A stretch of DNA of 64,000 nt from a virus. Lineage: Duplodnaviria > Heunggongvirae > Uroviricota > Caudoviricetes. The notes below the pieces were generated by a model. It did not search any database, was not told the DNA's origin, and was given only the letters and a program-made list of their open reading frames with translations. The position numbers and the translations under genes were made by a program. Where the stretch lies: positions 35,712-99,711 of the IMG/VR virus record IMGVR_UViG_3300033143_002040. One strand, 5' to 3'. Below are positions 4,697-63,411 of the stretch, in pieces. Position 1 is the first letter of the stretch. Every line of letters starts with the position of its first letter.

Positions 4697-4697
4697 T

Positions 4698-23565: not shown

Positions 23566-23594
23566 ATGTATATAAATTGATAGGAACTAATCAA

Positions 23595-25727: not shown

Positions 25728-25737
25728 GAGAAGAAAG

Positions 25738-40359: not shown

Positions 40360-41327
40360 TTCTGTTTTAATATTTCTTTAACTGCTTTGTCCAAATCATC
40401 ACTATTAGTTTTACCGTTAAGATTGTCGATCATCCAATCACCAAATTCAACAGTTAGATAATCTGTTTCTGTATAGTCGCCAAACACATGACCGTTGGCC
40501 GCTACCATTCTGTGATTTTCATTTGCAACAACATAGTATTGATCTATAGTAGATACTGAAGGGTATCCTGCGGCTCGTACACGCATCCACTCACCGTCTT
40601 TGCATATAGTGTGCGTTCCTGTTACGTTGACACCGTCAACACCATACCAAGTTTCGTATTTGCCATTGCCTGTTATTGTTTGGTCTACTACGCCGCCCAT
40701 TTCCATTACATCACCAAATACAATGTCTTGAACTTCTTTGAGTGATCCATCTGCCATACGGAATTCTGTACCGTACATAAAACAGCCGCCTCCGCCGCCT
40801 CCGCCGCCGTCGCCAGAGAGTACTCGCCAGTCCATTGCTGCTGTTGCTAGTACAGTAGTTCCTCGTCTAATCTGAAAATCAAATTGTGCGTGTTGTTCAC
40901 CGACACCTGAACCAGAGCCTGCGGAATCAACAAAAGTCCATTCTCTAGTTGTGCCTAGATCAAACCAAGTATCTTCGTCGCCGTCGCTATCACCGCCTGT
41001 CGGCGTGGTTACTGAGTCTATCCAAACACCGCCGCTTGGTGAGATTCCAAATCCTTCATCTTTCACAACCCAATTGAGATTAGTTATGCGTACATCGTAT
41101 GAAGAAGATGCGGCCGTATTAGGAATTATCCAGTCTGTCAATGCTTCAAATTGTACGAATGAAAAAGTACGACGCCAGTTGCATGTGCCGTCTGTATTAA
41201 ACGCTCGGCCTGCCGTACGCATAGCACTAGAGGTACTGCTGTGGTCGAATGTCTGGGCTGTTATAGTAACACCACCTGTAGCAGCAGCAGTTTGAATGCC
41301 GCGATCTCCTGATGAACTAGTAGACAT
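40356..41327 (-). CDS. tail-fibre-associated protein with C-terminal Hint (Hedgehog/intein-like) domain after a poly-Gly linker
   Basis: GGGGGGGGCFMYGTEF...VTGTHTICKDGEW...VVANENHRMVAANGHVFGDY. Confidence 0.7.
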   Translation of the reverse strand: MSTSSSGDRGIQTAAATGGVTITAQTFDHSSTSSAMRTAGRAFNTDGTCNWRRTFSFVQFEALTDWIIPNTAASSSYDVRITNLNWVVKDEGFGISPSGGVWIDSVTTPTGGDSDGDEDTWFDLGTTREWTFVDSAGSGSGVGEQHAQFDFQIRRGTTVLATAAMDWRVLSGDGGGGGGGGCFMYGTEFRMADGSLKEVQDIVFGDVMEMGGVVDQTITGNGKYETWYGVDGVNVTGTHTICKDGEWMRVRAAGYPSVSTIDQYYVVANENHRMVAANGHVFGDYTETDYLTVEFGDWMIDNLNGKTNSDDLDKAVKEILKQN

Positions 41328-45413: not shown

Positions 45414-46106
45414 TTAACTCCTAGTCTTCTCATTTATTTTCTGTGATGTCCAACCCTTAAATCCTTTGTGGACTGATTGGAAGGGTAAATTATTGTCTCT
45501 ACAATATTTACGTAAATTTTTAATCTGTGCTGTCTTGCCTTGTGGATCTGTGACGAGCCAATTACATGCTAATTTTTCTGCTTGTTTTTGTCGGGCTATT
45601 TTATTTTGTGACAGCAACCTAGCATTCTCACCAAATATTTTTCTCGCGTTGTCTGTAATAACACGCGATTTCCACGCTTCTTTTAATGCTTCTCTATGTG
45701 CTTCACTTTTTGGCTTGCCTTTTAAGGATGCAGAACGTTTAGCCTTTATAGCATCCGCATATTCTTTTCCATATCGTTCTTCGTATGTTTTTCCTTTGTA
45801 CAATACAGACATATTTTTTGCATGTTTTTCTCTCAACCATGCATAAAGTATATTACCTGTGCGTTCTTTCTGTTTCCCAGATGTCATCCTGTGTGCTGCA
45901 AATATAAGTTTTCTATTGTGAGGATATATCTTTACAAGCAGTAAGTGAGCTACATAATGTTCCCTTGCAGTCAATATTGAAATATTGCTAGGATCATCGC
46001 CACCGCCCATACACTTCGGAACGATATGATGTCTCTCAGTATATCCATCAAGCACACGATCTTGCGTTCTCTCATTCAGCCTGTTATAGTGTTCTATATA
46101 ATTCAT
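45414..46106 (-). CDS. HNH homing endonuclease (free-standing, copy 2) inserted in the tail-fibre operon
   Basis: HHIVPKCMGGGDDPSNISILTAREHYVAH; ~60% identical to the 20254 copy over the first 75 aa. Confidence 0.8.
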   Translation of the reverse strand: MNYIEHYNRLNERTQDRVLDGYTERHHIVPKCMGGGDDPSNISILTAREHYVAHLLLVKIYPHNRKLIFAAHRMTSGKQKERTGNILYAWLREKHAKNMSVLYKGKTYEERYGKEYADAIKAKRSASLKGKPKSEAHREALKEAWKSRVITDNARKIFGENARLLSQNKIARQKQAEKLACNWLVTDPQGKTAQIKNLRKYCRDNNLPFQSVHKGFKGWTSQKINEKTRS

Positions 46107-46732
46107 TAGGGCCCCATTTGCACCCTTATGGTGTACTCTATCTGAAGCTCCCTGTTCTGCGCTTTCTGTACTGGATGAAAGATAACGTGTGTTAGCATTC
46201 TTCCGTCAGGTGCAAAACTAAACGTTGGGCCTAATGTACCCGCTGATGTACCTGTATATAATGCAAGCTCATCAAAAATATATGTATCATTTGTTGTTGT
46301 TGCTGTATCAACTACGCTTTGTGTAAATTCTGGCGAAGCATTATCTGGCTCGCCGAATGCAATCAATACTGTTGTTGTTAAATCTGAAAAGTTTGATGTG
46401 CCAATAACTGTTACAATACTATTACCCGTAGCTGATAGTACTTCCCAATATGTTGGTTGATATGGCTCTGCCGATGCATCTTGTAGATTACTTGTATTTG
46501 GTGATCTATAAGATATGTTACCTGAGCTATCAATACTTGTGCCGCCTGAACCAAAGACCATATGTGTAATATGTCCTGTATCGGATCCTTGAAGTGCATT
46601 TGTAATAGCCCAAGAAATATTACCAAAGTGAATAGCATTTTCTTGATGAACAAATACTTCGCCTGTGTTCGGATCACTGATCTTTACAATGCCCTTAGCA
46701 CTCGTAGCGTTCATTATTAAATCTTCGTACAT
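46106..46732 (-). CDS. structural (baseplate/tail-fibre-associated) protein, 208 aa
   Basis: position in the structural operon; T/S/G-rich. Confidence 0.55.
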   Translation of the reverse strand: MYEDLIMNATSAKGIVKISDPNTGEVFVHQENAIHFGNISWAITNALQGSDTGHITHMVFGSGGTSIDSSGNISYRSPNTSNLQDASAEPYQPTYWEVLSATGNSIVTVIGTSNFSDLTTTVLIAFGEPDNASPEFTQSVVDTATTTNDTYIFDELALYTGTSAGTLGPTFSFAPDGRMLTHVIFHPVQKAQNRELQIEYTIRVQMGP

Positions 46733-46880: not shown

Positions 46881-49800
46881 TTAGGGTGAAAGGGAAATTG
46901 GCAATGCGTTGCCTTCTTCTAATTGTATAAATGCTGCTGCTACTGTAGTTGCTGCATTCAATCCACCTGGGAGTGCCCTATCTAGTACCCAAGTCACACC
47001 GTAGTTTTCACTGATTCTGCCTTCTTCATTAATAATATCTCCGCTTAAGGCAAGAACTACGCCTTCAAGATTTGTAGTTACTGAAATCTGTGCGTTGCCA
47101 TCGCCGGCGCCAGAGATAGTGAATGCTGCGCCGCCTGGAGTATACCCCGTGCCTCTGTCTACAATAGTCACATATAATATGCTGCCATCATCGTAGACAC
47201 CACCAACTTCTAGTACTGCCGGTGTTGCTGATGGGCCTAGTGCACCTTCAAGGGATGCTACTGATATAGTATCTCCGACTGAATATCCTGTGCCAGCTAT
47301 ATCAACAGTAATTATGCTAACTTCACCAGAAGCAATAAGGTCTTTAATGAAATATGAATTTTGAATTTGTGAATTAAACGCTGTTGTGACACGCAATGTA
47401 TCACCAACTACTACACTATCAGTAGTAACAAATGTTGTTTCTACAACATCAGCAAAGTGTACATTACCGTTGCCATTATTAATCCATATGCCGCCTGTAG
47501 CTGCGCCTGATTGATATGATGTTGTCGCACTATTAACCCAATAGATACTTGAAGCTGGAATTACTTGATCTGTGCCGCCGTCAAATACTTTCGATGCTAT
47601 TTGATGAGTTTGTGCGTGTGTACCTTGTGTCCCACGTACCACGCCAGTTAGTTGATTAGCGCCGACATTAACACCATGATATTCAATGCGTTCTGTACCA
47701 ATCCAAGCTATTTGTGGATCATCTAGTGTTGGAGTTGTTGAATACAAATTCGTCACTAAGGTGACTGGAATCAAATTATCAGTCAGTCCAAGTGTTGCTG
47801 TTAATGCTGTGCTTGCACCATCCGCATAACGATGTGAAGTTAAATTCTGTTGCGTATCATGATGGATACGATATGACAATGCTGTTAGCGTAAACGTTGC
47901 ATTGACACCAGACGCATCTGCTGTTGTTGCAAATGGACTCGTTGGATATACAAAGTAATCACCTTGATTTGTTACTGTAAATGTAGCTATTGGGCCAGGA
48001 GGTCCTGACGATGTTGTTACAACATCTATTGTGAGTGGCGATCCAAAATCATCTTCGTTATTAGTATCAGGAGTAATTGAGAATCCTGTTGCTACAACTG
48101 GAGGATCTAATGGTACAAACTGCGTAATAGATATTTGAGACAAGATAGTAGCTGACTGGAATCCGAGTCCGCTAGCAGTTGTAACTGTGAAGTCAGTAAC
48201 ATCTCCGTTAACGTCAACTGCATCAACTGTAACTGTTGTTTGGTCAGTCATTGTAATAATGTCGCCTACAACATACGCTGTGCTTCCGACAGTAAGCGTA
48301 GCTGTTGTATCTTCTGTATTAGTTTTAACTGCATCATTTATAGATAGCGTAATGACTGTAGCTGTTACATTAACAATAGTATATGTACCATCATTCTCAC
48401 CTAGGTTCTCTGAACCTGTAATAATAAGTTTCTGTCCAGAAGCAAATCCTAACGTATCAAACGCTGTGCCGCCAGTACGAGTAATTGTATCTGAAGTGTT
48501 TGATCCGTCAAACGCAAGACTTTGACTGACTACTGGAGCAACACGAATAACTTCTGCACCATCACCGCTTGTGAATGTTCCGTTGCTACCAACACCATCA
48601 AAATCAGTTTCATCTTGTGCTGCAATTGTTGTTTGTAGTCTGACACCGCCCGTAGCTGTTAGTGTTTCACCTACAGCATATCCTGTTCCTGCTACCGTGA
48701 GAACAATGTCTGTGCTATCAGCAATAACAATCAGATTCTCACGAGGATCTAGCGGTACCATTTCTTCTGAAATACCTGCAGTAACTTGCGGATTAATAAG
48801 ATCACCAGCTTCAATGTATGTAAAGATTTGAATATTATCTGTTCCCGTAGATGGTGCTCCGAATGTTCTGAATCCAGTTACATCTTTTACTGATACAAAT
48901 GTTAGTGTTGTTCCTATAAAGAAGTAATCAACATTAAGCACTTGCTCAATATCGTCTACAACAACAAACATGAAGAACGTTGGTACTGTAGATAAGATTT
49001 CAAATTCTTTCGTGCTACTGTTACCACTAAATGTTTCTTCTGATGGAATATTTGCAAACGTTCCTTGAGTTGTATTTGCCGTTCCTGTTGTCAACACAAA
49101 CCCTATACCTGCATCATTAGATGATGCTTGTAAAATTGGGTCGCCGGCAATAATGAATGCCGTACTACCGCCAGTAAGTGTAAAGCCAGTGACAACACCT
49201 GCTGCCACAACATCAACGGTAATATTAGAACCGTTATTACTACTCGGACCATCTTGCATAATGATTGTATCGAATCCTGCTAGCTGTGCAGTAGTGTCTG
49301 GAGGTGTCGAAGTATTGACTAATACATCTGAGGTAGATAATGTAATAACAGTAGCAGTAACATCAACGATAGTATATGTACCATCATTCTCGCCTGTATT
49401 TTCAGATAGCGTTACAATAAGTCTTTGACCCACTGTAAATTCGCCAGCTGTATTAAACGCCGTACCATCTGTACGCGTAATCGTATCTGCGCCACCTACT
49501 AATGCGAATGTTAACCCTGATGTATAATCATTAGATCCTGTATTCGCTTTGTATCCTGAGCCGCCAGCGAATGAACCATTCGGGAACACGCCGTCATAAT
49601 TAGATTGCGTGCTGCCAGGAACAGTAGTTGTCAAGTCATCAGGTGAGCCGTCAAGTGTAGTAACACTCGGATCATTAACTGAAGACTCGAATCCAATTTG
49701 ATCCCACGGAGTTGTATCGTGAGGTACTGATGATCCATTCTCAAAGACTAGTGCTGTTAACTGTGCACCAGATCCTGATCCACCTAGTAGATCAACTGGA

Positions 49801-52800
49801 TCTATTGTTGGAGTTTGGATATATGAACCGCCATCAATTAAATCAAGTGCTGTAATAACTGTACCAGCTTCTGCGCTTACGCGGAACTGTGCGTTACTAA
49901 CGGGCGTACCTGATCCTGCATCAAGTTGTAATATATCTCCTACTACATAACCTGAGCCACCATCAAAGAGTGTATAACTTCCTAATGTAGGCAGACCACC
50001 GAAAGATGTATTCTGTAAGAATGATCCTTGATAGTCAAAGAAGAACTCTGATGTGATAGCAGTATTAATTAATGCTACAGCTTCAAGCTCCTCTGTTGTA
50101 GTTGGATTGCCGTTCTGGGCAGGGTCAAATTCTGCAAGCGTTGTACCCGTATTAGGAAGCGGTGTTTCTAATACATCTATTGCTGTTCCGTTTATATATC
50201 CGCTACCAGAGTTACTTATGAATAGATTTGTTATGACTCCTAAAATAATGTCATATGTGATTTCACCTGTTCCGTTGCCGCCGCCCGCTGTAGACGTAAG
50301 AGTAAGTGTAACTCCTGTGTCATTTGTATAACCTGTGCCGCCAAATCCAGGAGTTACTATGTTCACAGATACAAGTTGTCCGCCAGCTACATCAACAGTA
50401 ATATCTGCTGTGATGCCTCCTGTAGGTGCTTGAATATCTGCAAGTTCTGTACGATAATTATTAACTGCTCTGCCTGCTGCACCTAGACGTACAAAAACTG
50501 TACCATTGTCTAATGTTGAGTATCCTTTGTAAGAACTGCTCTGACTGTTTTCGAACTTAGCAATACGCATTTCTGTAACACTCAAGTCACCACCACGAAT
50601 TTGATCGTACACCATAAACGATGTTATAGTGCGAGACTGTTCTGTTGCTTCGCCCTCAGCTAGATCAAGTTCTGTTGCGCGAGTCACACGGAAGTCACGT
50701 ACCTTTGTTTGATACGGCTTAGCTTCTGTGATATACTCTAGCGCACTATCGAACGGATCTTCTTGGAATACACGAGGTTGTGATAATGTTTGTCCTGTTT
50801 GATCTAGGAAGATATATGTTGATTTGAATGCCCAATCAAGATCATCCTGTTCACTAAAGACATAGTTCAACATAGCAAAATATACTAAGTTGTTATTCAC
50901 AACTAATTCATTCACAAATACTTCTGTTTCTATCGCTAGTATAAGTTCACGCAATTCAAGTGCGGTTGCTAAAGATTGATCGGTTGTGTAAATTGTACTC
51001 AATAGATTCAGCCTGCTTGCTTCACGCATAATCAATGTGTATAATTCTGTGTCAGAGCTATACTCATACAAACTAAATCGCGTTCCTATTACTTTTACAA
51101 TATCTCCATCAAGCGGATTAAGTAGCAACACTAAATCACTAGTATCATCTACTTGTCGAATTGGAGATGAGTTAGTCTCATCAAATCCTTCGAGGTACCA
51201 ATCTACCCATTCCCAAAGATCATTAGTGGATAGTGTTGCATTCCATAGTGGATTTTCGTCACGTAGAATAATGCTTTCTGTTAGTTGATTTATTTTATCT
51301 ACATATACTCGTCGTGCATCAAAGATGTCAAAGAACATAGTCTGCATAGGTCGTGTACGTATACCTAATTGATTTGCTGCACTCAATGTTGGATCAGGTA
51401 CAACTAAGTATCCCATAGTTGGATCTGCTGCTGTTGGCAATGCATTGTTAAAGTTATTCAATGCAAGACTCTCAACAGTCAACTTGTGAACTTCTGGCAA
51501 TAGTGGTAATGCTGGAGTTGCTACCGAAGCTATATTTACTCTAGTAGCTGGGTTCGGCACACCGAACAATGGATTAGCTTGGCGTGCTTGGCTATGTACA
51601 TATACCGATGTAGAATCTATTACTTCTATATAATACATAACACCATCTGTTAAACCGATAGTATCAATGCCGCCTGCCTTAGAATAGCGCGCACCATTGC
51701 CATTAGAGAATCCGTGTTCTGCTTTAAACGTAATAGCTTCTGTTCCGCTATCTATACCAGACGTATCTGTTGCTCCAACTGGATCAGTATTGAATTCTCC
51801 AATATCATCTGTATATGCTTCTGTACCAATTGGTATCGGAACAGTATATCCTACAAGAGAATCAACCGTCTTGTCCCAGTGTATATTATTAATAACGTAG
51901 CTAGGATCATTCTCACGACCTAACTCCCATTCAACGTGTGTTGGTCGTTCATCATCACTACGGCGGAAGTTAATTTGGAATACGTTATCACTATCTGTGA
52001 ACACTCCGTCCACACCAGAGAACATGAAACCTGACTGACTAACTGGGCTGAACCATTGATATAGATTAGCTGCTGGATTGCTAATAATACTTGCAACTTC
52101 AAATGCAGCGATTGTTCTATTAACACCACCTGGAATTTCTGTGCGATCCTTGACCCAGAAGTAATAATATGTAGCTACTCTTTCAAGAATCGGATCCCAC
52201 TCTTGTAATTCAGTGTAATTAGTTAAGCTACGTACTATTCCGTCACCCGTGTATGCAGTTGGCAGACTTGTACTACGTGTCCATTCATAGACATCCACAC
52301 TTGATCCTGAGAATAATTTGCCCCAATTATCTCTGCGGTATTCATCAGTACCTTGCTCGTAATGTAGATATGCACTTGTGCTTTGATCCCACCATAGCAA
52401 GCCAACTTGATCACCGTCAAAGGCTAAGTCTGCGCTAACTAGTTTAGCTGCATCGTCTACTGATGCATTAGTGTATCGTGCAGGATCACGTTGACTCTTC
52501 CATGTAATGTTTAGATCAGCAGTACCTGGGATAATTCCCTTGAACGGATCATAAACTGGGATTTGAGCTAGTGTATCCTTAGTATCATTCTCATATACAA
52601 ATGCATTTTCAAATTTATATGTTTCAATGTATTCTGCTTCTATGCGTAATGCATTATACGAATATAATACTCCAGCAGGTGACTTAATGACAGATGGTGA
52701 AAGTACATGCTCGAATCCACCGTTACGAATAAGATCAGTAGGTGTTACTCGCAAATAGCCTCGCTCGCCTTCTGGGAAACCTGTTCCGCCAAAAATGTCT

Positions 52801-55800
52801 GTTATTGTCCAGAATCCATTATTGCTATCAGATATGATTTCAACAAGATCACCAATATCAAATATTGCATCAAAGTCTACTGCCGCAGAGTTATCAACAA
52901 TTGTTTCTGCTGCTGCGGTTTCAGTAATAGAAATCTCCATTGAATCATCATCTGCATTAGTAGTAGTCAATGACGTTGAGAGGGTAATAACTGTTGAGGT
53001 GACAGTAAGAATATCATGTATGCCATCATTACCTGCGTCTTCAGAATTACTTATTGTAATTTCTTGAAGTGCTACAAAAAATCCAGGATCATCAAACGGC
53101 GTGCCATCTGTTCTTGTAATTGTATTTGCGCCACTGTCAATCGCTAGCCCTGCGCCACCACCTGCCCCACCAGTTGCATTCCAGTCGTTTAATGCTATGA
53201 ATGCAGTTTGCTTACTTGCTGGAACATCAGTACCAAGAATACTTGAACCAGAGCCAATCGACAATGATTCATCTAAGAAAAGACCAACTGCAGGTGTTGC
53301 TGTAGTAATAAATTCACTAGCTGTCCATACTGTATTTAATGCTGCGCCTGTTATTGTACTTGCAATTGTTTCAGATACTAATGTATCATCTGCTATCAAA
53401 GTAATTACGAATGGTTCAACACCGCTCGTTGCAATAGTATATGTACCATTGTTAGATACTGTACCTGTAATAGTAATCGTTTGTCCCTCAAAGAATCCTT
53501 CTGAAACAAACGTAGATGAGCCGCCTGTACGTGTTATCGTATCAGGGTTGTCATCTGCGAATATTAGTGTCGCTGCATCAGATGTAGTGACTGGGCTGTT
53601 TTCACCATCAGTCCAAACAATTAGATCATTCAGTGTTACATTATCTACGTCTAATGATTGTGACCCGAATAGAGCTAATGTTGATTCAAAGATTCTACGC
53701 TCCCCGATTGTACGGAAACGCAAATTCATTAACGTAAAGTATTCTGTATCATCTGCAAGAATGTTATCCTCAATAGGTTCACCGTCCTTGCTTAAGGTAT
53801 AAGTTGAACCACTGACAAGTACATAGTCATACAAAACATTGTTTGCATAAATTTGTCCTTCGTTTCTAATTGAGTTGCCCATGTAGCGACGCCAGCCTGT
53901 AGGTTCTATAATATCATCAGAACTAACTACAATGCCATCATCAAAGAATGTCAAGTCAACAGTAGCTCCTGTGCCTCCTGAAGGAAGAACTGTAGTAGCT
54001 GCGCCTGATGCAGTTGGCAGCGATGCATCATTTGAGTATTCGCCGCGTGTTGTAATCTCTACACTAAACACTTCTTGATTAAGTCTTCCTAGTGTTAGTG
54101 AGAAGTTTACACCTGTACCGTCTGAGCTTGCTTGCGCAATTGTATCTAGGTCAGTTGTAATACCTGCTGTCGTTGCAGTAGTTACTGTGAATTCAGAAAC
54201 AATACCTGTTGTGGGCGTTACTTGTACGTTGTCTACATCTAGTGTTAGTGTGAAGCCTGCTCCGCCCGAAGGTGGTGCTTGTCTAGGTGCTAACACTTCA
54301 TTATTAAATATTGTTGTAACTGTACTAGCAGAGATAATTTGGAAAGCAGTAATTGGTGCGCCAACTACTGGTGTAACAAACGGATCACCTGCGCCTGTGA
54401 CTTGTACAACAGTACCGTCTGACATTGTTATTATATCGCCAATGAGATAATCAGTACCTGCTGTGAATGTACCTTCTGTCGTTGGAGAGTTATCAAAGTC
54501 TGCTTCAGTTTGCAATGCAATTGTTGATACAGTTGCATTGTCTACAGTAATAGTAGAGCCATCTGTTAACGTAATTATATCCCCAATGTCGTGACCTGTG
54601 CCGCCTGCAAACGTACCTTCATCTAATGTTACACCATCGAATAATAGATAAGTTTGTGAAGCTATTGTAGCTACTTCATCAACTGTCAATGTTGCACCTA
54701 CTCCTGTACCACCGACTACTGTTAATACATCATCTATGCTATAGCCTGTTCCACCTGCTGCTACTGTTACTGTATCAATAGTAACGTAGTATTCAGAACC
54801 TGTTGAACCTACTTTAACATTTGCTGTTGCAATACTACCGAAAGCATCAACTTGATACTCAATGATTGCATTGCCGTTGCTAGATGGTACTGTGTTTGAT
54901 GTAATAGTAAACTCTGCATCTCTAGTATAACCGAAGCCGCCACCAATAACTGTTACTGCCTCGACTACTTCGCCGTCTACATCAATTGTGAACTGTGCTT
55001 CGATCAAGTCTTCACGAGGAATACTTGTTAATGTTACAAGACCATCGTCTTCTGCTGCAGGAGTTTGCGTTAGTGTAGCACCTATTCCTAATAGATCACT
55101 ACCGCTTTCTTCGTTTGCAATTCCTGGAGTTAGTGTAAAGTCATTGTTACCTAGACCATTCGATGATGCTGTTGTTAATGTTGTGTCCGCACGCGCTGCG
55201 AATGATGTTTGACTCGCTAATGTAATATTAAACGTTACTACTGCGCCACTAGAAACAGTATTTACTGTGACTTGTGTACCATCGCTAAGAGTAATAATCT
55301 CTGTAGCAACATATCCTGTGCCGCCAAAGAATGTACCATTCGGACTTACGTTATCAAAGTCTGTATTAACTTGTCCAAGTATAGTAGAACCCTTATAGCC
55401 ATCAAGTCCATACACGCCAAATTCTTCGCGTGCATCGCGTGCCACCCAGATCGTCTGACCGTGCTTGCTTGGAACCGTTGCTGCTGTAGCTAATGAATCA
55501 ACATCAGCCTCAGAGAATGATTGGAAGTTAGCATCTTCACTGTGTACATAGCCTGCGTTCGTAGTATTATATGTATCTAATACATCATCAGGCCATACCT
55601 CGCCTGCAACGTCACATGCAACACCACCTGGTTTTGTAATCCAGCGTGTCTCATCATCAATGTCAATAAGAATTGCACCATTTGATGGATCATCTGTAGC
55701 GACATCAAAGCTAATACGTGCCGTTGCTCTATCTGCTAATGCGGATATAACTGGCAAGCCTATTGCAACTTGTGGCGGTTGACTGTAACCAGTACCACCT

Positions 55801-58800
55801 GTCAATATATCAATACGCAATATCGAACCATCTGTGTCTAAGATAGATACTGCTGTAGCACCTGAACCTGTTGTATCGTCAGGATGATTAGTAATGAATA
55901 CAGTTGGCGCAATTGTATATGTATTAGCTGCGCTAACAAGATCAATCTCTGTAACTACACCTGTTGGGAATGCAGTTAATGTATGCGCAGTACCAACGCC
56001 AGTGCTTGTCAAGTCGATGTGAATTGGCGTAACTGATGTTGCATCTGATTTTGTTAATGCGAATTGGAATCTATCCTCATCAATTACAATGATATAGTAT
56101 TCTGTATCGTCAAGTAGTCCGCCAACAACAGTGCCGCCACCTGCACTATATGTCTTAGGTGCGCCGCTTCTGTAATTGTGATTATCAATCGTTACTAGAT
56201 CACCACGAACTCCGTCAGGATCGTCATCCGTAACTGTAACATCATCTACGCTATCGAATGCATAAGTAGGCGGAACTGATTCTGTTGCAGGGTATGCGAG
56301 TTGAACCAACTGTGGATCAACTTTAACTTCATCTGCTGCAATCAAGAACTCTGTAAAGTTATTAACACATACTGCACCAAAGCTATCGAGTCTCAATGCC
56401 CATTCTTCAATGATAGTTAGATCATTGTCAATGTCTGTAACAAGTTTGTTACGCTCCATCTTCTCAACAGCTTGTCGTGTACCCTTCTGTCGAACCATAC
56501 CCTGATAGAACTGATACTGTGCATCATCTAGAATACCTAGATCAGTAAAGTAATCGCGCTCGTCAAAGCCGATTAAGTGACGCGCAGTTTCTTCAATAGC
56601 AGGATTGTCTAGTACGACTTCTGTATTGTGATAGTTACGAATACTGTCTACCATGTTCTCATAGTTAGGTAGCAAACCGTTAGCTGTAATAATGAATCCT
56701 GCAGCTTCAAGCTTACCTGTCCATTCGCGAGTACGACGACCTCTAAAGTCTAGTCGTGCTAGTCGTGAACCAAGAACTGGATCGTACAATGTATCGTTGA
56801 ACACAGTTACGTTATCGAATGTAACGATGTTCTCTGTTTCGCGAGTGATCGCATGTAAACCATAGATACCTGTCTGTTCTATATCAGGCTCTAGTTCTAT
56901 TCTGCGATCTACACGATTAATGATTGTATTGATAGGATCAATAGCAACACCATTCTTATCTAGAACAGCGTATACACCATTGATGACTTGCTCTACATTA
57001 TCAACATAACCTTCTTGAGCTATAAGTATAGCCTTCTCTGCCATCGGAGATAACTGTATAATAGAGTTTTCTTCCCATTGAGTACCTACCCAGAACAAGA
57101 AGTCCTTTGCTGCTTGTACCCAGTTGTTAATTGTATTGTTAGCTGAGTTGACTGTTTCGAACGTCCAACCTGCATTCGTTTGTGCTTCGCCTAATCCTAC
57201 TAAGAAATCGAAGACTTCCTGAACACCATTAAATTTATGGCCGTATGGAATTGCGACTTCTGAATTTGCACCAGTTACCTTGTAGGTAGCACTCACACCT
57301 CCAGTGATTGGAAGTTTGTTTAGCTTCAACCATTTGTCAGCTTCAAACGTATCTGCTTGATGCGCTTCTATACAACGATAGAATATACCATTTAGTCTAG
57401 CAATCATACCTAACATATATGAAGTACCAATTGCAAACTGAATGAATGTCTCAGGCTGACCACCTACTGTTACGTCTTGATCTGCTGCTGATATAACTCG
57501 CGGAACTATAATGAACTCGGCCGCCGTAACATCGTAGCCAAATACTTGATACTGGTCATCAGCTAATGCACGAACAAGCGCGCCACTGTATACATAGTCT
57601 GTAACTGGCGCGCCTGTGTACAATGCTACGTCAATGTTCTCTGCTGGCACAAGTAAGTTACTTGCTTGCGAAGTAACACTGATACCTTCTACGAACACTT
57701 TCATAGTATCTTTGTTAGTAAACGCGGCCATCTTGTGGCCGAGCTTAACGTCTAGTGTACGAAGAAGGTTTCCGAAGTCTACTGTAACATCTTTCTTCAA
57801 TGACTTAAGCCGACCAGCAATCCATACTTGATAACCAGTCTGTATCTGAGCCACGCCACTCACTACTTCACCGTGTACGTATAACGTACTGTTTCCTATA
57901 CGTTTAAAGATACCTGCATCACTAGATACAATCTGTTCATTGTCAACTGGCACTTCATAAATATGTTCTGGATCCCAAAACTTCTCACCGAACTCACCTG
58001 GTCGAGCAAGAAACAATGCTTCTGCTACTGCGAACGGGAATGATTCCGATGTTTCCCAAGCATACTCTACTGGTGCTTTATCAGTCCAGTCATAATCTGC
58101 AGCCGCATCACTAGCACTCGGATCTACCAAGCTTGCGGACGCGTCGATACAAAGCAAAGGCGAAGCCTTTAAAGCGCCGAGGACATCTACAGGAAGATGA
58201 TCCGCAACTAAGTCCGTCCTAGCATAACGTGTATCAACGTATCCTAACACGATTTCTTCCGTAGCTATATCTACTTGACGCCTTACATACCCATTCTCAA
58301 GATCACTCCACATAGCATTAGTTGACACATAAGGAGCAGAGCCATAGCCTGTGAAGTTATCTCCAAACAAAGCTAACTCTTCCGCACCATCATCACCAAC
58401 TAATAATGCTGTACTCTCCCACCAATCAGGTATAGCAGAGAAACCTAGCATCTCCCATGGAGTAGTATCAGGTGTCTGTGAGTCGTAATAGTAATCGAAT
58501 ATACCTCTCCAATAACCTGGCAGCAACTCACCATCTACATCTACTACTGTCTTATAGTTCCAAGTGAATGGATCTAATGCATCATAATAACCATTAGTAA
58601 TGTAATCAGCTTTATTTGACGATACCCACTTATAGAAAGACTGTTTAATCAAGTCTTGTAACTCACTTAGCTCCCATCGTGTAGAACGGAACTTACCAGG
58701 CTTATACGTATCCATTTCCAAAGGTATCGTGTAATTTTTTCGGAACCCTTCTATAATACCATTGTATATACGTGTCTCAAACTCTAGTAGTAATTCATCT

Positions 58801-61800
58801 ATAATACTATTATAAACTGGTGTACGAGAACCATCATGTCCTAGTATGAACTGAGTGGAATTAGCATATGTATCATCTGTGATAATAGCTGGAACCACGG
58901 CTGTATAGAGTCCTAATTTAGTAGGAGTCGCAGGAATGTGTGCAGCCGAAGATTCTCCAAAGAGGCGCATGACTATGCTCGCACCTACCGATGGTGGAGT
59001 TGTCATTGTTATTTGGATTGGGTTAAGATTTGTTATTGTATAATCTTTTCCAACCGCCTGTAAAATTTCATCAATGTAAACATATAATACATTTCTTTTA
59101 TCTTCTAGGTCAACGAAGTCTGTTGTGCTGTATATGAGTGTAGCCCCTGTACCCACGAATACTGTCTCTTGATACACAGTGTTCCACGCTATCATGTACG
59201 TATCATTGAACGCTGTGTCATACTCGCGTGCCCTAATGATGCGACGTATAGCCTCGTCTACCCATTCGCTTACGGGTATCTGATTGCCTAACTGTTGAGG
59301 GGTAAAGCCTTCCTTGACTAACTGTATGCCTACCCTTATGAACTTATTCTTATAGCGTGTGTACTCATTAGATGATAGACGTAATGCCTCTACTATGTCT
59401 AGCTCATCAGTGGATGTGCATAGCATTGTCTTGATGAGTGGGCTTTGGTTCTGTAGTATGAACGTACCCAGTGAGCCATCTTTGAGTGTGTCTCTATAGT
59501 TATTACCTGCACCGAACGCTGTGCCTTCATACACAGCCTGCTCAGTGATGATAGATGTATAGTGAGGGGTGAACTCATTCCATGATTGTTCTAGGACTTC
59601 TAAGTTGTTAGGGTTGTTCTCTAATGCATTAGGTATCTCAAAGTATCCTAAGTCTTCGTCTGCTATTGCATCGAAGGTGTAGGTGAGTAACTCTACTACT
59701 GCGCCTTCGCCAGGTGCGCCTGATGCTTGCTGGCGGGCTAAGATAGCTGCGCTTACTATTGGTGCAGTAACGAATGTAATGACTGTGCCTGTTGATGCAT
59801 CTTGTGATACTATGATATAATCTGTGAAGGCATTGCTTAAGTCTGTGCCTAGGGTTTGATACAGTCCATCAATGTATACTTCAAAGTCTTCGCTGATTGA
59901 TGAGAAGGTGTAGCCAGCTTGGGTACCTGTGCCAGCCGCTGATTCATCATTGGTTGATCGTGCTAATAGTTTCATACTATTAGTCTCAGGTATGTAAGCG
60001 AACTCAGATGTATTCAAACGTCTGCCTTGTGTTACAACAAAGTTAGCTGGGCCAGAGACTTGATCGACTGGCCCACCGCTTATTGGGAATGTGTTTTCAT
60101 CGTCTGTTGTAGTTAAGAATCTATCTATAACTCTTAACTCCTCTGGTGCAGTAGATGATTGCCAATTAGTCTCAAAGCTTGAGCCTAGGATGGTACAATC
60201 AGCAGGCGCAGTATCAAACACCTTGAAGAAATAGTAGCCTACTATCTCTGTGGTGGCTGAGCCAGTTGGAGTGTAATCGACTCGATCTGTCTCGAGGTCG
60301 TTCTCAAAGATAACATCTCCCAGTTCTCTAAAGCCTTTGGTCTCTAGTGGAAATCCAAGAACTGGATCATCAGTAAGGGAACCACCTCCCTGCTCTGTAA
60401 GTCGTTGTTGTGTAAGGACTTTATATGAGTATATCTCATTGCCTATGAAAGTGGAAACAGGGTAAGCTGTTGAATCGTCTAGGGTTATTCCATCTCCATC
60501 ATACAGACTGAATAGTGGCTGCTGGTTAGCCGCATCTTTGCTCTGTGCTAGCTCCCACGTGTAAGTCACTGTTAATACATCTAATTCTTGATAGAACGTA
60601 GAGCCTTGGTAGGCGGTTCCCTCCAAGATCAATATGTTCTCTCCTATGTCTACTGTGACAGAGCTAGGGAAGATGCCTGTCTCTAGATCAATACGTTCTA
60701 GTAAGATAACGCCTGGGTTTGTAACAAGATCAACATGCCATATGAAACGTGTCAATGCGCCAGTGGCACCGCTTACATCCCATGGTGTAGTACCTGCGGC
60801 TGCAATGTGATAGCCTCTCAATACTGCTGCCACTGCGCCTTCTGTTACTAATGATTCTGTTGAAGCCAGCGTGATAACTGTAGAAGTAACACCAGCCGCA
60901 GCAATCTCATAGTCACCGTCATTAGATGCTGAGCCTGCAATGTTTATTGTCTGGCCAGGTGTAAAGCCTTCAGCTAAGAAGTCTACGCCACCGCCAGCAC
61001 CAGTGATCGTATCAGCCGAACCTACATCAGCAAACGCTAGTGTAGTTGCAGTCGTAGTAGTAACTGGACCCGACTCATCCCATCGTGAGCCAGTGAATGT
61101 GCCAAAGCCAGCATCAGGATCTTTATCCCACTCTTGGAACGTTGGCACACTAACAGGATTCAAGAAGATAAGTGTATCTCCGTTCACTAGTTCATGTCCA
61201 TCTACTTCTAGTCCAGAGCCAGCACCTTGGATATCACCAAAGCTTTCTGTCTCTGCTACTGCTGTTACTTCACCAATAAATCTATTGCCAAAGTTATATA
61301 GTTCAATGTCTTTTTTAAACTCTAAGATAGGCCGAGCGGCTTTGTTACTACGTGACACAGCCGAGGCAAGTATACCATCAATCAATGCGCCACTACCATT
61401 ACCAGTAACAATCGTGTTGTCATCCCATAACGTAACGCCCAACTCATTAGCTGTATCTAGTGTTAATGAGAAGCCTGTACCTGGACCTGTTGATCCTGTT
61501 TGACTCTGGGTAGTTCCTTGTGTTAAGATAAGAGAAGTACTAGACGTAGTAATAGTAAACTCAGTCACTACACCTGCCAATACATTCTCCACTTCAATAA
61601 TTGTGCCATCATCTAGTGTAACAAAGTCACCTATAACATGAGAAGCTCCACCAGCATAAGTACCATTAGGTGATACGTTATCAAAGTCCGCCTCGGTCTG
61701 CCCTAATGATGTCAAGAAGCCAGAAGCTTTAGTAGCAATGTTATTAGGATCCCACGATGAACCAAGTCCACCAACAGCCTCATTATCCCATTGCAATGGC

Positions 61801-62807
61801 TCAACAATAGCAGGTATAGATCCTGCTCCATTATGCTGTGCAAACGAATATCCAGTACCTCTTGTTAATACTCCTATGCCATCAATAACTCCACCTAATG
61901 CTATACTAGAGACAAAGAATGAACCATCAGACCCGTCACCCACATTAACTAGAAGAGGATCACCTACCTCATAGTTTAGTCCACCATCAGTAATCGTTCC
62001 ACCAAGTAACTGTCCAAGAGCCGTAATGCTATCAACTGCGTCTTCATGGAACCATCTATTACTTCTACTCCAAGGACTACCTTCACAACTTCCACGCTCA
62101 CTAGTAATGTAATCAGCTATACTTAGGTCAGCAGGCACAACACTCAAGTCTTCTACTAAGCGAATACCTCTACCAACACACTCTACATACAATGGCGTAT
62201 CATAAGATGCCGAACCTTCAAACTGTACACGCATACCTGTACTGAACTGGAAGTCTCCAGGAGTCAAGTTGGCATTATTACTAGTATTGAAGTCTGTAGC
62301 GCCAATGATGTCGCTCTCTATGAAAGTATCATATGTAGCAGCATCCCAAAGCGGTGCTTGGATGAACGCCGTAGGAGCAGTATTAGTTATGTTTGATGCC
62401 TCCAACCAGAGATAGTTTTGATAGTTTAGGAACTTATCTACATCTATCGGCGGTGCAAAGCTATAGTATAGATCACTAAACAATCTATCATGGTTGTCAA
62501 TATTGCCGCCACGATGCTCAACATAGTTTAATAGGTCTTCATAGAAGTTATGATTCGAGTCTTGCAATGCAGCATTAACCGCATAGGCAATAGGCTCAAG
62601 CTGATAAGACGCTCTGTTCTTATTAGGTTCACCTAAATAATTATCCACTGCAGGGTCTAGGACATCACTCGAACGCCTACCGATAAATCCCTGTGCCTGT
62701 TCTACATTGGCTGAATTAAATAACTGGTCAAATGTCGCAGCATAGAACTCCTTTTGGACCTCTGTCTGCAATATTGCCGGTAATTTCTTTACAAATCTCT
62801 GAATCAT
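46881..62807 (-). CDS. giant (5,308 aa) repetitive fibrous structural protein, probably a tail-fibre/baseplate-associated fibre
   Basis: 15.9-kb uninterrupted ORF; two repeated module types (DTITRTGG...GQxIxIxGSxxNDGTYTIxxVTxTVITL x5; FDNVSPNGTxxGGxGY...GDIITLxDGTxxxV x6); many GTGY motifs; heads the minus-strand tail-fibre operon. Confidence 0.85.
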   Translation of the reverse strand: MIQRFVKKLPAILQTEVQKEFYAATFDQLFNSANVEQAQGFIGRRSSDVLDPAVDNYLGEPNKNRASYQLEPIAYAVNAALQDSNHNFYEDLLNYVEHRGGNIDNHDRLFSDLYYSFAPPIDVDKFLNYQNYLWLEASNITNTAPTAFIQAPLWDAATYDTFIESDIIGATDFNTSNNANLTPGDFQFSTGMRVQFEGSASYDTPLYVECVGRGIRLVEDLSVVPADLSIADYITSERGSCEGSPWSRSNRWFHEDAVDSITALGQLLGGTITDGGLNYEVGDPLLVNVGDGSDGSFFVSSIALGGVIDGIGVLTRGTGYSFAQHNGAGSIPAIVEPLQWDNEAVGGLGSSWDPNNIATKASGFLTSLGQTEADFDNVSPNGTYAGGASHVIGDFVTLDDGTIIEVENVLAGVVTEFTITTSSTSLILTQGTTQSQTGSTGPGTGFSLTLDTANELGVTLWDDNTIVTGNGSGALIDGILASAVSRSNKAARPILEFKKDIELYNFGNRFIGEVTAVAETESFGDIQGAGSGLEVDGHELVNGDTLIFLNPVSVPTFQEWDKDPDAGFGTFTGSRWDESGPVTTTTATTLAFADVGSADTITGAGGGVDFLAEGFTPGQTINIAGSASNDGDYEIAAAGVTSTVITLASTESLVTEGAVAAVLRGYHIAAAGTTPWDVSGATGALTRFIWHVDLVTNPGVILLERIDLETGIFPSSVTVDIGENILILEGTAYQGSTFYQELDVLTVTYTWELAQSKDAANQQPLFSLYDGDGITLDDSTAYPVSTFIGNEIYSYKVLTQQRLTEQGGGSLTDDPVLGFPLETKGFRELGDVIFENDLETDRVDYTPTGSATTEIVGYYFFKVFDTAPADCTILGSSFETNWQSSTAPEELRVIDRFLTTTDDENTFPISGGPVDQVSGPANFVVTQGRRLNTSEFAYIPETNSMKLLARSTNDESAAGTGTQAGYTFSSISEDFEVYIDGLYQTLGTDLSNAFTDYIIVSQDASTGTVITFVTAPIVSAAILARQQASGAPGEGAVVELLTYTFDAIADEDLGYFEIPNALENNPNNLEVLEQSWNEFTPHYTSIITEQAVYEGTAFGAGNNYRDTLKDGSLGTFILQNQSPLIKTMLCTSTDELDIVEALRLSSNEYTRYKNKFIRVGIQLVKEGFTPQQLGNQIPVSEWVDEAIRRIIRAREYDTAFNDTYMIAWNTVYQETVFVGTGATLIYSTTDFVDLEDKRNVLYVYIDEILQAVGKDYTITNLNPIQITMTTPPSVGASIVMRLFGESSAAHIPATPTKLGLYTAVVPAIITDDTYANSTQFILGHDGSRTPVYNSIIDELLLEFETRIYNGIIEGFRKNYTIPLEMDTYKPGKFRSTRWELSELQDLIKQSFYKWVSSNKADYITNGYYDALDPFTWNYKTVVDVDGELLPGYWRGIFDYYYDSQTPDTTPWEMLGFSAIPDWWESTALLVGDDGAEELALFGDNFTGYGSAPYVSTNAMWSDLENGYVRRQVDIATEEIVLGYVDTRYARTDLVADHLPVDVLGALKASPLLCIDASASLVDPSASDAAADYDWTDKAPVEYAWETSESFPFAVAEALFLARPGEFGEKFWDPEHIYEVPVDNEQIVSSDAGIFKRIGNSTLYVHGEVVSGVAQIQTGYQVWIAGRLKSLKKDVTVDFGNLLRTLDVKLGHKMAAFTNKDTMKVFVEGISVTSQASNLLVPAENIDVALYTGAPVTDYVYSGALVRALADDQYQVFGYDVTAAEFIIVPRVISAADQDVTVGGQPETFIQFAIGTSYMLGMIARLNGIFYRCIEAHQADTFEADKWLKLNKLPITGGVSATYKVTGANSEVAIPYGHKFNGVQEVFDFLVGLGEAQTNAGWTFETVNSANNTINNWVQAAKDFLFWVGTQWEENSIIQLSPMAEKAILIAQEGYVDNVEQVINGVYAVLDKNGVAIDPINTIINRVDRRIELEPDIEQTGIYGLHAITRETENIVTFDNVTVFNDTLYDPVLGSRLARLDFRGRRTREWTGKLEAAGFIITANGLLPNYENMVDSIRNYHNTEVVLDNPAIEETARHLIGFDERDYFTDLGILDDAQYQFYQGMVRQKGTRQAVEKMERNKLVTDIDNDLTIIEEWALRLDSFGAVCVNNFTEFLIAADEVKVDPQLVQLAYPATESVPPTYAFDSVDDVTVTDDDPDGVRGDLVTIDNHNYRSGAPKTYSAGGGTVVGGLLDDTEYYIIVIDEDRFQFALTKSDATSVTPIHIDLTSTGVGTAHTLTAFPTGVVTEIDLVSAANTYTIAPTVFITNHPDDTTGSGATAVSILDTDGSILRIDILTGGTGYSQPPQVAIGLPVISALADRATARISFDVATDDPSNGAILIDIDDETRWITKPGGVACDVAGEVWPDDVLDTYNTTNAGYVHSEDANFQSFSEADVDSLATAATVPSKHGQTIWVARDAREEFGVYGLDGYKGSTILGQVNTDFDNVSPNGTFFGGTGYVATEIITLSDGTQVTVNTVSSGAVVTFNITLASQTSFAARADTTLTTASSNGLGNNDFTLTPGIANEESGSDLLGIGATLTQTPAAEDDGLVTLTSIPREDLIEAQFTIDVDGEVVEAVTVIGGGFGYTRDAEFTITSNTVPSSNGNAIIEYQVDAFGSIATANVKVGSTGSEYYVTIDTVTVAAGGTGYSIDDVLTVVGGTGVGATLTVDEVATIASQTYLLFDGVTLDEGTFAGGTGHDIGDIITLTDGSTITVDNATVSTIALQTEADFDNSPTTEGTFTAGTDYLIGDIITMSDGTVVQVTGAGDPFVTPVVGAPITAFQIISASTVTTIFNNEVLAPRQAPPSGGAGFTLTLDVDNVQVTPTTGIVSEFTVTTATTAGITTDLDTIAQASSDGTGVNFSLTLGRLNQEVFSVEITTRGEYSNDASLPTASGAATTVLPSGGTGATVDLTFFDDGIVVSSDDIIEPTGWRRYMGNSIRNEGQIYANNVLYDYVLVSGSTYTLSKDGEPIEDNILADDTEYFTLMNLRFRTIGERRIFESTLALFGSQSLDVDNVTLNDLIVWTDGENSPVTTSDAATLIFADDNPDTITRTGGSSTFVSEGFFEGQTITITGTVSNNGTYTIATSGVEPFVITLIADDTLVSETIASTITGAALNTVWTASEFITTATPAVGLFLDESLSIGSGSSILGTDVPASKQTAFIALNDWNATGGAGGGAGLAIDSGANTITRTDGTPFDDPGFFVALQEITISNSEDAGNDGIHDILTVTSTVITLSTSLTTTNADDDSMEISITETAAAETIVDNSAAVDFDAIFDIGDLVEIISDSNNGFWTITDIFGGTGFPEGERGYLRVTPTDLIRNGGFEHVLSPSVIKSPAGVLYSYNALRIEAEYIETYKFENAFVYENDTKDTLAQIPVYDPFKGIIPGTADLNITWKSQRDPARYTNASVDDAAKLVSADLAFDGDQVGLLWWDQSTSAYLHYEQGTDEYRRDNWGKLFSGSSVDVYEWTRSTSLPTAYTGDGIVRSLTNYTELQEWDPILERVATYYYFWVKDRTEIPGGVNRTIAAFEVASIISNPAANLYQWFSPVSQSGFMFSGVDGVFTDSDNVFQINFRRSDDERPTHVEWELGRENDPSYVINNIHWDKTVDSLVGYTVPIPIGTEAYTDDIGEFNTDPVGATDTSGIDSGTEAITFKAEHGFSNGNGARYSKAGGIDTIGLTDGVMYYIEVIDSTSVYVHSQARQANPLFGVPNPATRVNIASVATPALPLLPEVHKLTVESLALNNFNNALPTAADPTMGYLVVPDPTLSAANQLGIRTRPMQTMFFDIFDARRVYVDKINQLTESIILRDENPLWNATLSTNDLWEWVDWYLEGFDETNSSPIRQVDDTSDLVLLLNPLDGDIVKVIGTRFSLYEYSSDTELYTLIMREASRLNLLSTIYTTDQSLATALELRELILAIETEVFVNELVVNNNLVYFAMLNYVFSEQDDLDWAFKSTYIFLDQTGQTLSQPRVFQEDPFDSALEYITEAKPYQTKVRDFRVTRATELDLAEGEATEQSRTITSFMVYDQIRGGDLSVTEMRIAKFENSQSSSYKGYSTLDNGTVFVRLGAAGRAVNNYRTELADIQAPTGGITADITVDVAGGQLVSVNIVTPGFGGTGYTNDTGVTLTLTSTAGGGNGTGEITYDIILGVITNLFISNSGSGYINGTAIDVLETPLPNTGTTLAEFDPAQNGNPTTTEELEAVALINTAITSEFFFDYQGSFLQNTSFGGLPTLGSYTLFDGGSGYVVGDILQLDAGSGTPVSNAQFRVSAEAGTVITALDLIDGGSYIQTPTIDPVDLLGGSGSGAQLTALVFENGSSVPHDTTPWDQIGFESSVNDPSVTTLDGSPDDLTTTVPGSTQSNYDGVFPNGSFAGGSGYKANTGSNDYTSGLTFALVGGADTITRTDGTAFNTAGEFTVGQRLIVTLSENTGENDGTYTIVDVTATVITLSTSDVLVNTSTPPDTTAQLAGFDTIIMQDGPSSNNGSNITVDVVAAGVVTGFTLTGGSTAFIIAGDPILQASSNDAGIGFVLTTGTANTTQGTFANIPSEETFSGNSSTKEFEILSTVPTFFMFVVVDDIEQVLNVDYFFIGTTLTFVSVKDVTGFRTFGAPSTGTDNIQIFTYIEAGDLINPQVTAGISEEMVPLDPRENLIVIADSTDIVLTVAGTGYAVGETLTATGGVRLQTTIAAQDETDFDGVGSNGTFTSGDGAEVIRVAPVVSQSLAFDGSNTSDTITRTGGTAFDTLGFASGQKLIITGSENLGENDGTYTIVNVTATVITLSINDAVKTNTEDTTATLTVGSTAYVVGDIITMTDQTTVTVDAVDVNGDVTDFTVTTASGLGFQSATILSQISITQFVPLDPPVVATGFSITPDTNNEDDFGSPLTIDVVTTSSGPPGPIATFTVTNQGDYFVYPTSPFATTADASGVNATFTLTALSYRIHHDTQQNLTSHRYADGASTALTATLGLTDNLIPVTLVTNLYSTTPTLDDPQIAWIGTERIEYHGVNVGANQLTGVVRGTQGTHAQTHQIASKVFDGGTDQVIPASSIYWVNSATTSYQSGAATGGIWINNGNGNVHFADVVETTFVTTDSVVVGDTLRVTTAFNSQIQNSYFIKDLIASGEVSIITVDIAGTGYSVGDTISVASLEGALGPSATPAVLEVGGVYDDGSILYVTIVDRGTGYTPGGAAFTISGAGDGNAQISVTTNLEGVVLALSGDIINEEGRISENYGVTWVLDRALPGGLNAATTVAAAFIQLEEGNALPISLSP

Positions 62808-63033
62808 TCCCTTTTTATTCCTTTTTTATTCTCGTCTCCACCGTCCCTAAAGTTATGGAAACAGCGTAATAGTAGCTATTAATAACTAAAACCCATCACT
62901 AGTTGCACTAGTGATATAAAGCCTTCATTTGTAGCATAATTATCATTCTTAAACCCTTGTATAGCTTCATTCTTCTCTACTATTCTTTTATACTGCTTAA
63001 CTGTTCATTATATAAGACACTAGTGATTCTTAT

Positions 63034-63162
63034 ATCGTAATAGTGGTAAAAAATCACTCTCGATACTTCTCTCTTGTAAAACCCACTGAACGGTCATCAT
63101 TTAGTGTTGTTAGTGTATTATTAAATCGTAATACTGGTAAAAATCACTCTCGATACTTCTCT
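63034..63162. repeat. two ~39-bp direct repeats (ATCGTAATAsTGGTAAAAATCACTCTCGATACTTCTCT) upstream of the giant gene
   Basis: copy 1 63034-63072, copy 2 63125-63162; 1 mismatch + 1 indel. Confidence 0.8.
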
Positions 63163-63411
63163 GTATGTGTACATTTTACCATTCTAAATCCTCTGTATCG
63201 AAAAAACGTCCTACCACTCTCTACGTCAACTATAGCTTCATTGTTACTTTTTCTGCGTGTTTAAAAACATTCTTATATCGTATTCGGGACTATTTTTGCC
63301 TCCCTATTATCTCACTCACTTACACTCAAATACATCATACAATTTAGTACTGTTGTGAATAGTTACTACAGTCAAGCCTACAAGTAGAGTTGCATGAGTG
63401 AATATAGTATC

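Follow-up and report, generated by a model that had tools for sequence, protein, structure and literature searches.

A 5,308-codon gene in an uncultivated phage

We analysed a 64,000-nucleotide (nt) stretch of DNA (the window), positions 35,712 to 99,711 of IMG/VR virus record IMGVR_UViG_3300033143_002040, from a virus of the class Caudoviricetes; all coordinates given here are those of the window. Our subject is a giant open reading frame (ORF) of 5,308 codons with an ATG start (46881..62807, minus strand), a member of the PHROG 10938 family. Judged by sequence comparison, its product is a large, module-rich addition to an already catalogued family of jumbo-phage virion proteins. A prior description made from the DNA letters (the sequence-only reading) had proposed a very long fibre or whisker; we came to favour a baseplate component.

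Translation of 46881..62807 ran through with zero internal stops, giving a predicted protein of 568 kDa and pI 4.05. The start codon is backed by homologues: P0172, an uninterrupted protein of 5,062 amino acids (aa), begins MIQQFSKKLPQILQT, and the window giant protein begins MIQRFVKKLPAILQT. The composition described as Thr/Gly/Ser/Ala/Val-rich is so overall (Thr 11.8%, Gly 9.3%, Ala 8.3%, Val 8.1%, Ser 7.1%; the commonest residues are Thr, Gly, Ala, Val, Asp, Leu and Ser), but the bias is regional and not uniform. Those five residues make up a fraction of 0.50-0.56 at aa 250-750, 2250-3250 and 4000-5300; at aa 1-250, 750-2250 and 3250-4000 the fraction is 0.32-0.42 and aromatic residues are commoner.

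An ORF of this length might be an artefact, arising from collapsed or mis-joined repeats or from the fusion of truly separate genes. The homologous region is indeed broken in two metagenomic relatives. The closest, L006, has a giant gene 55-60% identical to that of the window with one frameshift at ~6474, and L007, a 328-kb ENA metagenome contig, has a giant gene with one in-frame stop at ~15733; owing to these interruptions the gene is called as two ORFs in both. The breaks are probably sequencing errors, since each is a single event and they fall at differing places. Within the window ORF the best direct repeat at the DNA level is 97 nt long at 76% identity, and no meaningful tandem arrays were found there; repeat collapse during assembly is therefore unlikely. 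A 5,034-aa protein from a separate assembly (P0171) is collinear with the window protein at 76-81% identity. Counting L006 as well, the giant gene is present in two independent assemblies. P0171, P0172 and more than 120 other family representatives are uninterrupted and core-collinear at 3,000-7,900 aa, and in 6/6 isolates the gene is a single ORF (3,323-4,555 aa). We rejected an assembly artefact through collapsed repeats on the weak DNA repeats, the lack of tandem arrays and the collinearity of P0171, and consider an artefact or fusion of any kind highly implausible. The single uninterrupted 15.9-kb minus-strand ORF first reported thus stands.

Orthologues are virion proteins of jumbo myoviruses

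PHROG 10938, annotated as 'virion structural protein' (profile length 3,324), matched the N-terminal half of the protein at E = 9e-270 and the C-terminal half at 7e-89. When 50,697 phage records were searched with the core by tblastn, 93 matched, and all of these were jumbo myoviruses. They comprise PA5oct-like phages of Pseudomonas (40% identity), Phosso of Sinorhizobium, Atu_ph07 of Agrobacterium, and RaK2-like phages infecting Xanthomonas or enterobacteria. Full-length collinear BLAST alignments were obtained with PA5oct gp355 (3,857 aa), Atu_ph07 gp180 (4,449 aa), CBB gp236 (3,340 aa), Phosso XYS97451 (4,555 aa), and the orthologues of XaC1 (3,332 aa) and vB_Ec-M-J (3,323 aa). Identity is ~40% to the PA5oct orthologue and 25-30% to the others. 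The DNA polymerase encoded in the window is ~40% identical to polymerases of the same jumbo-phage group, and together with the core matches this identifies the window as part of a distant uncultivated member of the assemblage. At the nucleotide level, megablast of the 5' end of the giant gene and its upstream region against phages returned zero matches.

Two of these orthologues have been detected in virions. The record of PA5oct gp355 carries a note of detection by electrospray ionization tandem mass spectrometry (ESI-MS/MS); the protein, numbered gp128 in PMC7318152, is one of the two largest of that phage and adjoins baseplate wedge gp129 (PMC7318152). CBB_236 was detected by mass spectrometry with 21 peptides and 7.7% coverage (PMC5259590). 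In RaK2-like phages the gene is a hallmark as the largest ORF, and their genomes were aligned from 'the largest ORF' as common origin (PMC5259590).

The family is large. An exhaustive HMMER search with the best conserved segment of the protein (core 1, below) retrieved 1,310 cluster representatives at E <=0.001 and 778 at E <=1e-30. The best 148 of the 1,310 have a median length of 3,697 aa and a maximum of 7,914 aa, and 20 of those 148 equal or exceed the window protein in length. With lengths reaching 7,914 aa, the size of the window protein is therefore typical for its family; the remark that it is exceptional is apt for phages generally but not within this lineage.

Conserved blocks and lineage-specific insertions

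A residue was counted as conserved if three or more of the six isolate orthologues matched it collinearly. This gave seven conserved blocks (aa 5-145, 208-258, 486-548, 721-1193, 1284-2175, 3387-3654 and 3856-4048), non-repetitive and summing to 2,081 aa, 39% of the protein. The lineage-specific part amounts to 3,227 aa (61%), of which 2,474 match none of the six isolate orthologues. Its segments coincide with the Thr/Gly-rich regions and hold every repeat module.

The N-terminal domain (aa 1-258; 62034..62807, minus strand, as are all segments that follow) is conserved family-wide and begins with helices, followed by a conserved stretch modelled at low confidence (aa 32-88) and then an alpha/beta domain. 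The sequence-only reading had placed a non-repetitive region in the N-terminal ~350 aa; a conserved non-repetitive domain is present there, with its extent reduced to aa 1-258. It is followed by lineage-specific insertion 1 (aa 259-485; 61353..62033), which is missing in the isolates and in compact homologues such as P0003. Insertion 1 holds the first GTGY motif (aa 317) and a copy of module A (aa 369-455), and was modelled with a predicted local distance difference test score (pLDDT) <50. Next come a beta-rich conserved block at pLDDT 75-95 (aa 486-548; 61164..61352) and lineage-specific insertion 2 (aa 549-720; 60648..61163), with a copy of module B at aa 587-657.

No part of the family is better conserved than core 1 (aa 721-2175; 56283..60647), which has the motifs TPTKLGLY, GHDGS and PWEMLGF..KP.WW and is broken by a short variable segment at aa 1194-1283. 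It contains a CBM5/12-like motif at aa 1792-1818 (window 57354-57434), weak but consistent across the family. PF02839 (CBM_5_12) matched the window protein at 21.1 bits against a gathering score of 26.2, and matched at the same position in 6/25 and 5/12 family members (best E = 2e-5); the family profile weakly matched the chitin-binding domains of chitinases 2rts (E = 0.013) and 1ed7 (E = 0.83).

Lineage-specific region 3 (aa 2176-3386; 52650..56282) contains module A at aa 2478-2566 and 2717-2911, module B at aa 3078-3147 and 3218-3284, and short GG(T/S)GY units. Conserved core 2 (aa 3387-4048; 50664..52649), with a variable stretch at aa 3655-3855, corresponds to PHROG 10938 positions 1746-2149. 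The C-terminal region (aa 4049-5308; 46884..50663) is mostly lineage-specific and includes two composites of module B within module A. Near the C-terminus is a conserved motif, ERIEY...RGT..T..H (~aa 5040-5085), and aa 4945-5110 were matched in the PA5oct and Atu_ph07 orthologues. A weak match to Rcc01698_C was seen in 2/12 family members (E = 0.008).

Other members of the family carry other accessory domains as insertions, at differing positions of the scaffold: YHYH, a domain like the C-terminal part of T4 gp9 (PHROG 677), CBM_X2 and a head-fibre domain. Carriers include P0006, P0023, P0018 and P0032. The inserted YHYH domain is common to other giant phage PHROGs (2885, 701 and 4406).

Two module families with rapid turnover

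Self-BLAST of the whole protein yielded only the identity match, and repeats were sought by windowed self-BLAST and iterated hidden Markov models (HMMs). This bore out the prediction of at least two module families. Module A is ~87 aa long, with 10 HMM matches representing ~7 copies, some of them split or partial; module B is ~71 aa long, with five copies in the giant protein. At aa 4398-4579 and aa 4730-4918 module B is nested within module A, and the two composites share 48% identity. The scattered GTGY(S/T) motifs had been listed beside the module families. An HMM seeded on one GTGY occurrence retrieved the N-terminal halves of module A copies, and we rejected GTGY as a third family: the motif forms the core of module A's N-terminal half.

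The recognisable modules jointly span ~1,170 aa, only 22% of the protein as against 39% for its non-repetitive conserved core, so the description of a body built from modules was overstated. Among the best 148 of the 1,310 family representatives, module A occurs in 8 and module B in 2. Module turnover between close relatives is fast: aa 3167-3371 and aa 4131-4221 of the window protein are missing from P0171, and the C-terminal fragments P0163 to P0165 vary in their content of A and B units.

Modules A and B also recur, at 40-60% identity, in unrelated proteins of ~1,700 aa (P0166-P0170; L008 799-5880). These are encoded on other phage-like contigs, adjoining genes for ribonucleotide reductase (RNR), thymidylate synthase and GTP cyclohydrolase I. 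From this recurrence the modules appear to be mobile between phage structural proteins.

Gene neighbourhood

In six isolates of differing genera the giant gene stands directly after a gp25-like gene and a large gp6-like wedge gene. The order in the baseplate cluster of the relatives is gp53, gp5 (hub/lysozyme), gp25, gp6 and then the giant gene; L007 repeats this order, its small gene matching Pfam GPW_gp25. In T4 the slot after gp25 and gp6 is occupied by gp7. This gene context in the relatives argues for a baseplate component rather than a long fibre or whisker.

Directly upstream of the window gene is a ~600-nt stretch (62808-63400) with stops in every frame, and the 1.2 kb upstream of the ORF held only this non-coding stretch and small ORFs. 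A terminator-like hairpin (62894..62916, minus strand) lies ~90 nt upstream of the ATG, at the end of the non-coding stretch. The hairpin and the non-coding stretch suggest that a separate transcription unit probably begins with the giant gene, which makes its earlier placement at the head of an operon reasonable. The T4-type late promoter TATAAATA was not enriched, and none was found upstream of the giant gene. The upstream stretch also contains a ~50-nt direct repeat (63026-63072 and 63117-63162), its copies spaced 90 nt apart, and a third copy of the 14-nt core of the repeat at 63269-63282. There was no conservation of the upstream region with L006.

Downstream, the synteny of the relatives is kept in the window, with a gp357 orthologue followed by fibres that share an N-terminal adaptor. 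The first is a 208-aa protein (46106..46732, minus strand; PHROG 11259), orthologous to PA5oct virion protein gp357 (42% identity; an ESI-MS/MS note is in its record) and to Atu_ph07 gp177. In both of those phages, too, the protein is encoded downstream of the giant gene, with the 41-aa gp356 in between in PA5oct, and gp179 and gp178 in between in Atu_ph07. Two fibre-like genes follow on the minus strand, of 587 aa (43642-45405) and 538 aa (41327-42943), with a 267-aa ORF between them; the four tail-fibre-like genes counted in the sequence-only reading were a generous estimate. The two fibre-like proteins have variable bodies and a ~90-aa N-terminal adaptor in common, found also in PA5oct gp358 (which bears a 'T4-like gp10' note), PA5oct gp359 and Atu_ph07 gp176. 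These two adaptor-bearing proteins are the likelier receptor-binding proteins of this phage.

A proposed baseplate role

On balance, we take the ORF to encode the giant structural protein, associated with the baseplate, that typifies jumbo myoviruses like RaK2, PA5oct and Atu_ph07, acting by the mechanism proposed below. A baseplate-associated structural role is much more certain than a wedge role of the gp7 type.

An AlphaFold2 (AF2) model of aa 1-1200, built from a 36-sequence alignment, placed the conserved blocks at pLDDT 75-95 with a predicted template modelling score (pTM) of 0.60. The model indicates that the conserved parts of this segment are packed globular domains and not an extended fibre. 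For the gp7 idea it provides weak support. Phage fibres and whiskers have an extended shaft of regular repeats, are usually trimeric, and carry a distal receptor-binding domain. As a fibre, the giant protein would be a multimeric extended appendage with an N-terminal anchor and a shaft of modules setting host range. Such a reading draws on the Thr/Gly/Ser-rich modular regions, which make up 61% of the length, on the position of the gene at the head of a fibre-like gene cluster, and on the unexplained 'hairy' appendages of CBB, phAPEC6 and Atu_ph07, whose genes are unassigned (PMC5259590, PMC7247149, PMC6102473). The conserved, aromatic-rich, non-repetitive blocks, however, total 2,080 aa and are distributed along the whole chain, not confined to the N-terminus, and are modelled as globular over aa 1-1200. 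There are no tandem shaft repeats; the modules are few, diverged, scattered and sometimes nested. The low mass-spectrometric coverage of the CBB orthologue is consistent with low copy number, and the gene lies within the baseplate gene cluster in seven relatives. For these reasons we regard the very long fibre or whisker as distinctly unlikely.

Several results weigh against the baseplate role that we favour. There is no gp6-like gene anywhere in the 64-kb window, nor was one found in the 885 bp available upstream of the giant gene in L006; with the window and L006 both lacking an adjoining gp6-like gene, the synteny argument rests on the relatives. For profile comparisons we used a 36-sequence family profile (A1), a full-length 12-sequence family profile (A4) and a 21-sequence gp7 profile (A2). 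Aligned to T4 gp7 (A2) with hhalign, the family gave a probability of 0.3% (A1) and 0.2% (A4). The Pfam domains of gp7 (PF21428, PF21456 and PF21427) were unmatched, none of them giving a hit at E <=0.1. Wedge subunits of the gp7/TssG/P2 gpI class have an N-terminal helix and a trifurcation fold, with which they enter a heterotrimer with two gp6-like chains. Proteins of the gp7/TssG type sometimes resemble the N-terminus of gp6-like proteins; the N-terminal profile of the giant family showed no similarity to the N-termini of its cognate gp6-like proteins. Searches of PDB sequences with the two halves, A1 and A4 found no relative except the chitin-binding motif (A4). The inserted modules were modelled at pLDDT <50 within aa 1-1200.

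Other comparisons were also negative. BLASTP of the giant protein against T4 gp6, gp7, gp8 and gp10 gave zero hits, and an NCBIfam search returned nothing. 'Baseplate wedge subunit' PHROG matches in two family members were rejected, as they reflect a shared inserted YHYH-type domain and not the core. Foldseek with the aa 1-1200 model found no hit in the PDB at E <=0.001. In solved baseplates, the N-terminal part of the wedge protein folds only inside the heterotrimer (PMC13433997), so the Foldseek result is not decisive. The strongly conserved aa 32-88 are precisely the part of the AF2 model with low confidence.

These negative results bear on a related explanation, which differs from the favoured one only in how the protein is anchored: it would be a scaffold on the outer periphery of a complete wedge, with some other small protein filling the gp7/TssG role. 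Every homology test to gp7 or to the wedge N-terminus was negative, as this explanation would have it, and in the window the giant gene is uncoupled from gp6. There is also a precedent in phiKZ, which builds extra peripheral layers with dedicated scaffold proteins, e.g. gp27 and gp139 (PMC13250141). On the other side, no other candidate for a third wedge subunit is evident beside gp6 in the clusters of seven relatives. Contractile systems widely keep to the order gp25/W, gp6/J, gp7/I and then fibre (Taylor et al. 2016, 2018), which also counts against an outer scaffold. We consider such a scaffold unlikely.

Under the favoured baseplate role, the ~2,080 residues in seven conserved blocks would form a multi-domain body in the periphery of an enlarged baseplate. 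[quoted passage not shown] Its N-terminus would join two copies of the gp6-like wedge protein, and the remainder would extend outward as a platform on which the downstream fibres may dock via their common ~90-aa N-terminal adaptor; such sharing is what docking on one platform would lead one to expect. A few insertion hot spots of the scaffold would have acquired lineage-specific, Thr/Gly-rich small beta-modules (A, B and B-in-A), to be gained and lost rapidly between close relatives. The beta-modules are probably solvent-exposed decorations and may weakly bind glycans of the host surface; a role in host adhesion is possible.

A bolder proposal, which we put forward tentatively and think improbable as it stands, is that the family is a single-chain 'whole periphery' baseplate protein. 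It would close the wedge, as gp7 does, and also serve as platform and connector, functions that T4 divides among gp8, gp9 and gp10, and its hot spots would serve as an evolvable display scaffold. If so, host range would be tuned by inserting, nesting or deleting small domains in one chain, not by swapping fibre genes; the hot-spot domains would be modules A and B, YHYH, and the gp9-C-like and CBM-like domains. The window protein, with its B-in-A units and its 200-aa indels relative to a protein 76-81% identical, would then be a snapshot of the process.

The family comprises the largest gene products of a main jumbo-phage lineage, confirmed virion components without a recognisable Pfam core. 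Placing them in the gp7 position gives a concrete hypothesis for cryo-electron microscopy of PA5oct, 121Q or CBB. The map of blocks and hot spots provides one as well, and should aid in reading host-range variation in uncultivated jumbo phages. We suggest that the gene be annotated as encoding a giant structural protein of the baseplate cluster (PHROG 10938 family) instead of a repetitive tail fibre.

Other genes in the window

A homing endonuclease had been noted downstream of the giant gene, and we identified it as an HNH enzyme (45414-46106, minus strand; PHROG 655, E = 9e-53) inserted after the gp357 orthologue and ahead of the fibre genes, a place that is empty in PA5oct. Atu_ph07 gp178, which lies between the giant gene and the gp357 orthologue, weakly resembles the C-terminal half of this HNH endonuclease (25% over 105 aa).

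Another downstream product, a 323-aa protein (40356-41327, minus strand), had been called a Hint-domain protein. Its C-terminal half is weakly Hint-like, with a match to Pfam Hom_end_hint (E = 0.0037) that falls below the gathering score. It has a nine-glycine run followed by 'CFMYGTEFRMADGS...', resembling an N-terminal splice or autoprocessing motif of the Hint/intein type. The protein may represent a fibre-cluster protein with a predicted autoproteolytic C-terminal domain.

Window positions 1-40000 encode, on the plus strand, replication and nucleotide-metabolism genes. Among the genes of the window are a family-B DNA polymerase (96-2855), a QueE-like radical SAM protein (14437-15351), a large HNH endonuclease (23577-25088) and an RtcB ligase (25720-26991), all on the plus strand, and a dihydrofolate reductase (DHFR; 37129-37674) on the minus strand. 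No tRNA genes were found in the 64-kb window.

Comparison with known systems

The nearest counterparts are the members of PHROG 10938 (PA5oct gp355/gp128, CBB_236, GAP32_230, Atu_ph07 gp180 and Phosso XYS97451), with which the window protein shares a collinear N-terminal domain, both cores and the C-terminal motif. Giant size is common to them, as is a mosaic of conserved blocks and variable insertions, and so is the setting: a gp357-orthologue neighbour downstream and fibres with the same N-terminal adaptor. The window protein is longer than the six isolate orthologues (5,308 vs 3,323-4,555 aa) and has module families A and B of its own. Its locus also differs from theirs in that no gp25-like and gp6-like genes directly precede the giant gene, and in the HNH endonuclease inserted downstream.

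The fibres of the window resemble the branched receptor-binding systems that have T4 gp10-like or adaptor domains (CBA120 TSP4/TSP2, G7C gp66 and phiKp24 gp306) in having a conserved N-terminal adaptor. The CBA120, G7C and phiKp24 proteins are trimeric tailspikes with enzymatic C-terminal domains, whereas Pfam and NCBIfam searches found no depolymerase or beta-helix domain here.

T4 gp7 (1,032 aa) is likewise large and multi-domain, and the giant gene of the relatives, like gp7, comes after a gp6-like gene and before peripheral baseplate and fibre genes. The giant protein is five times longer and has no detectable sequence or profile similarity to gp7.

The best analogue, and the template for the role proposed here, is gp117 of Staphylococcus phage 812, together with its A511 equivalent. 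The gene for this arm scaffold protein comes straight after the wedge gene. With its first 176 residues the protein completes the wedge heterotrimer, and the rest of it makes up a baseplate arm on which tripod and receptor-binding proteins have docking sites (PMC13433997).

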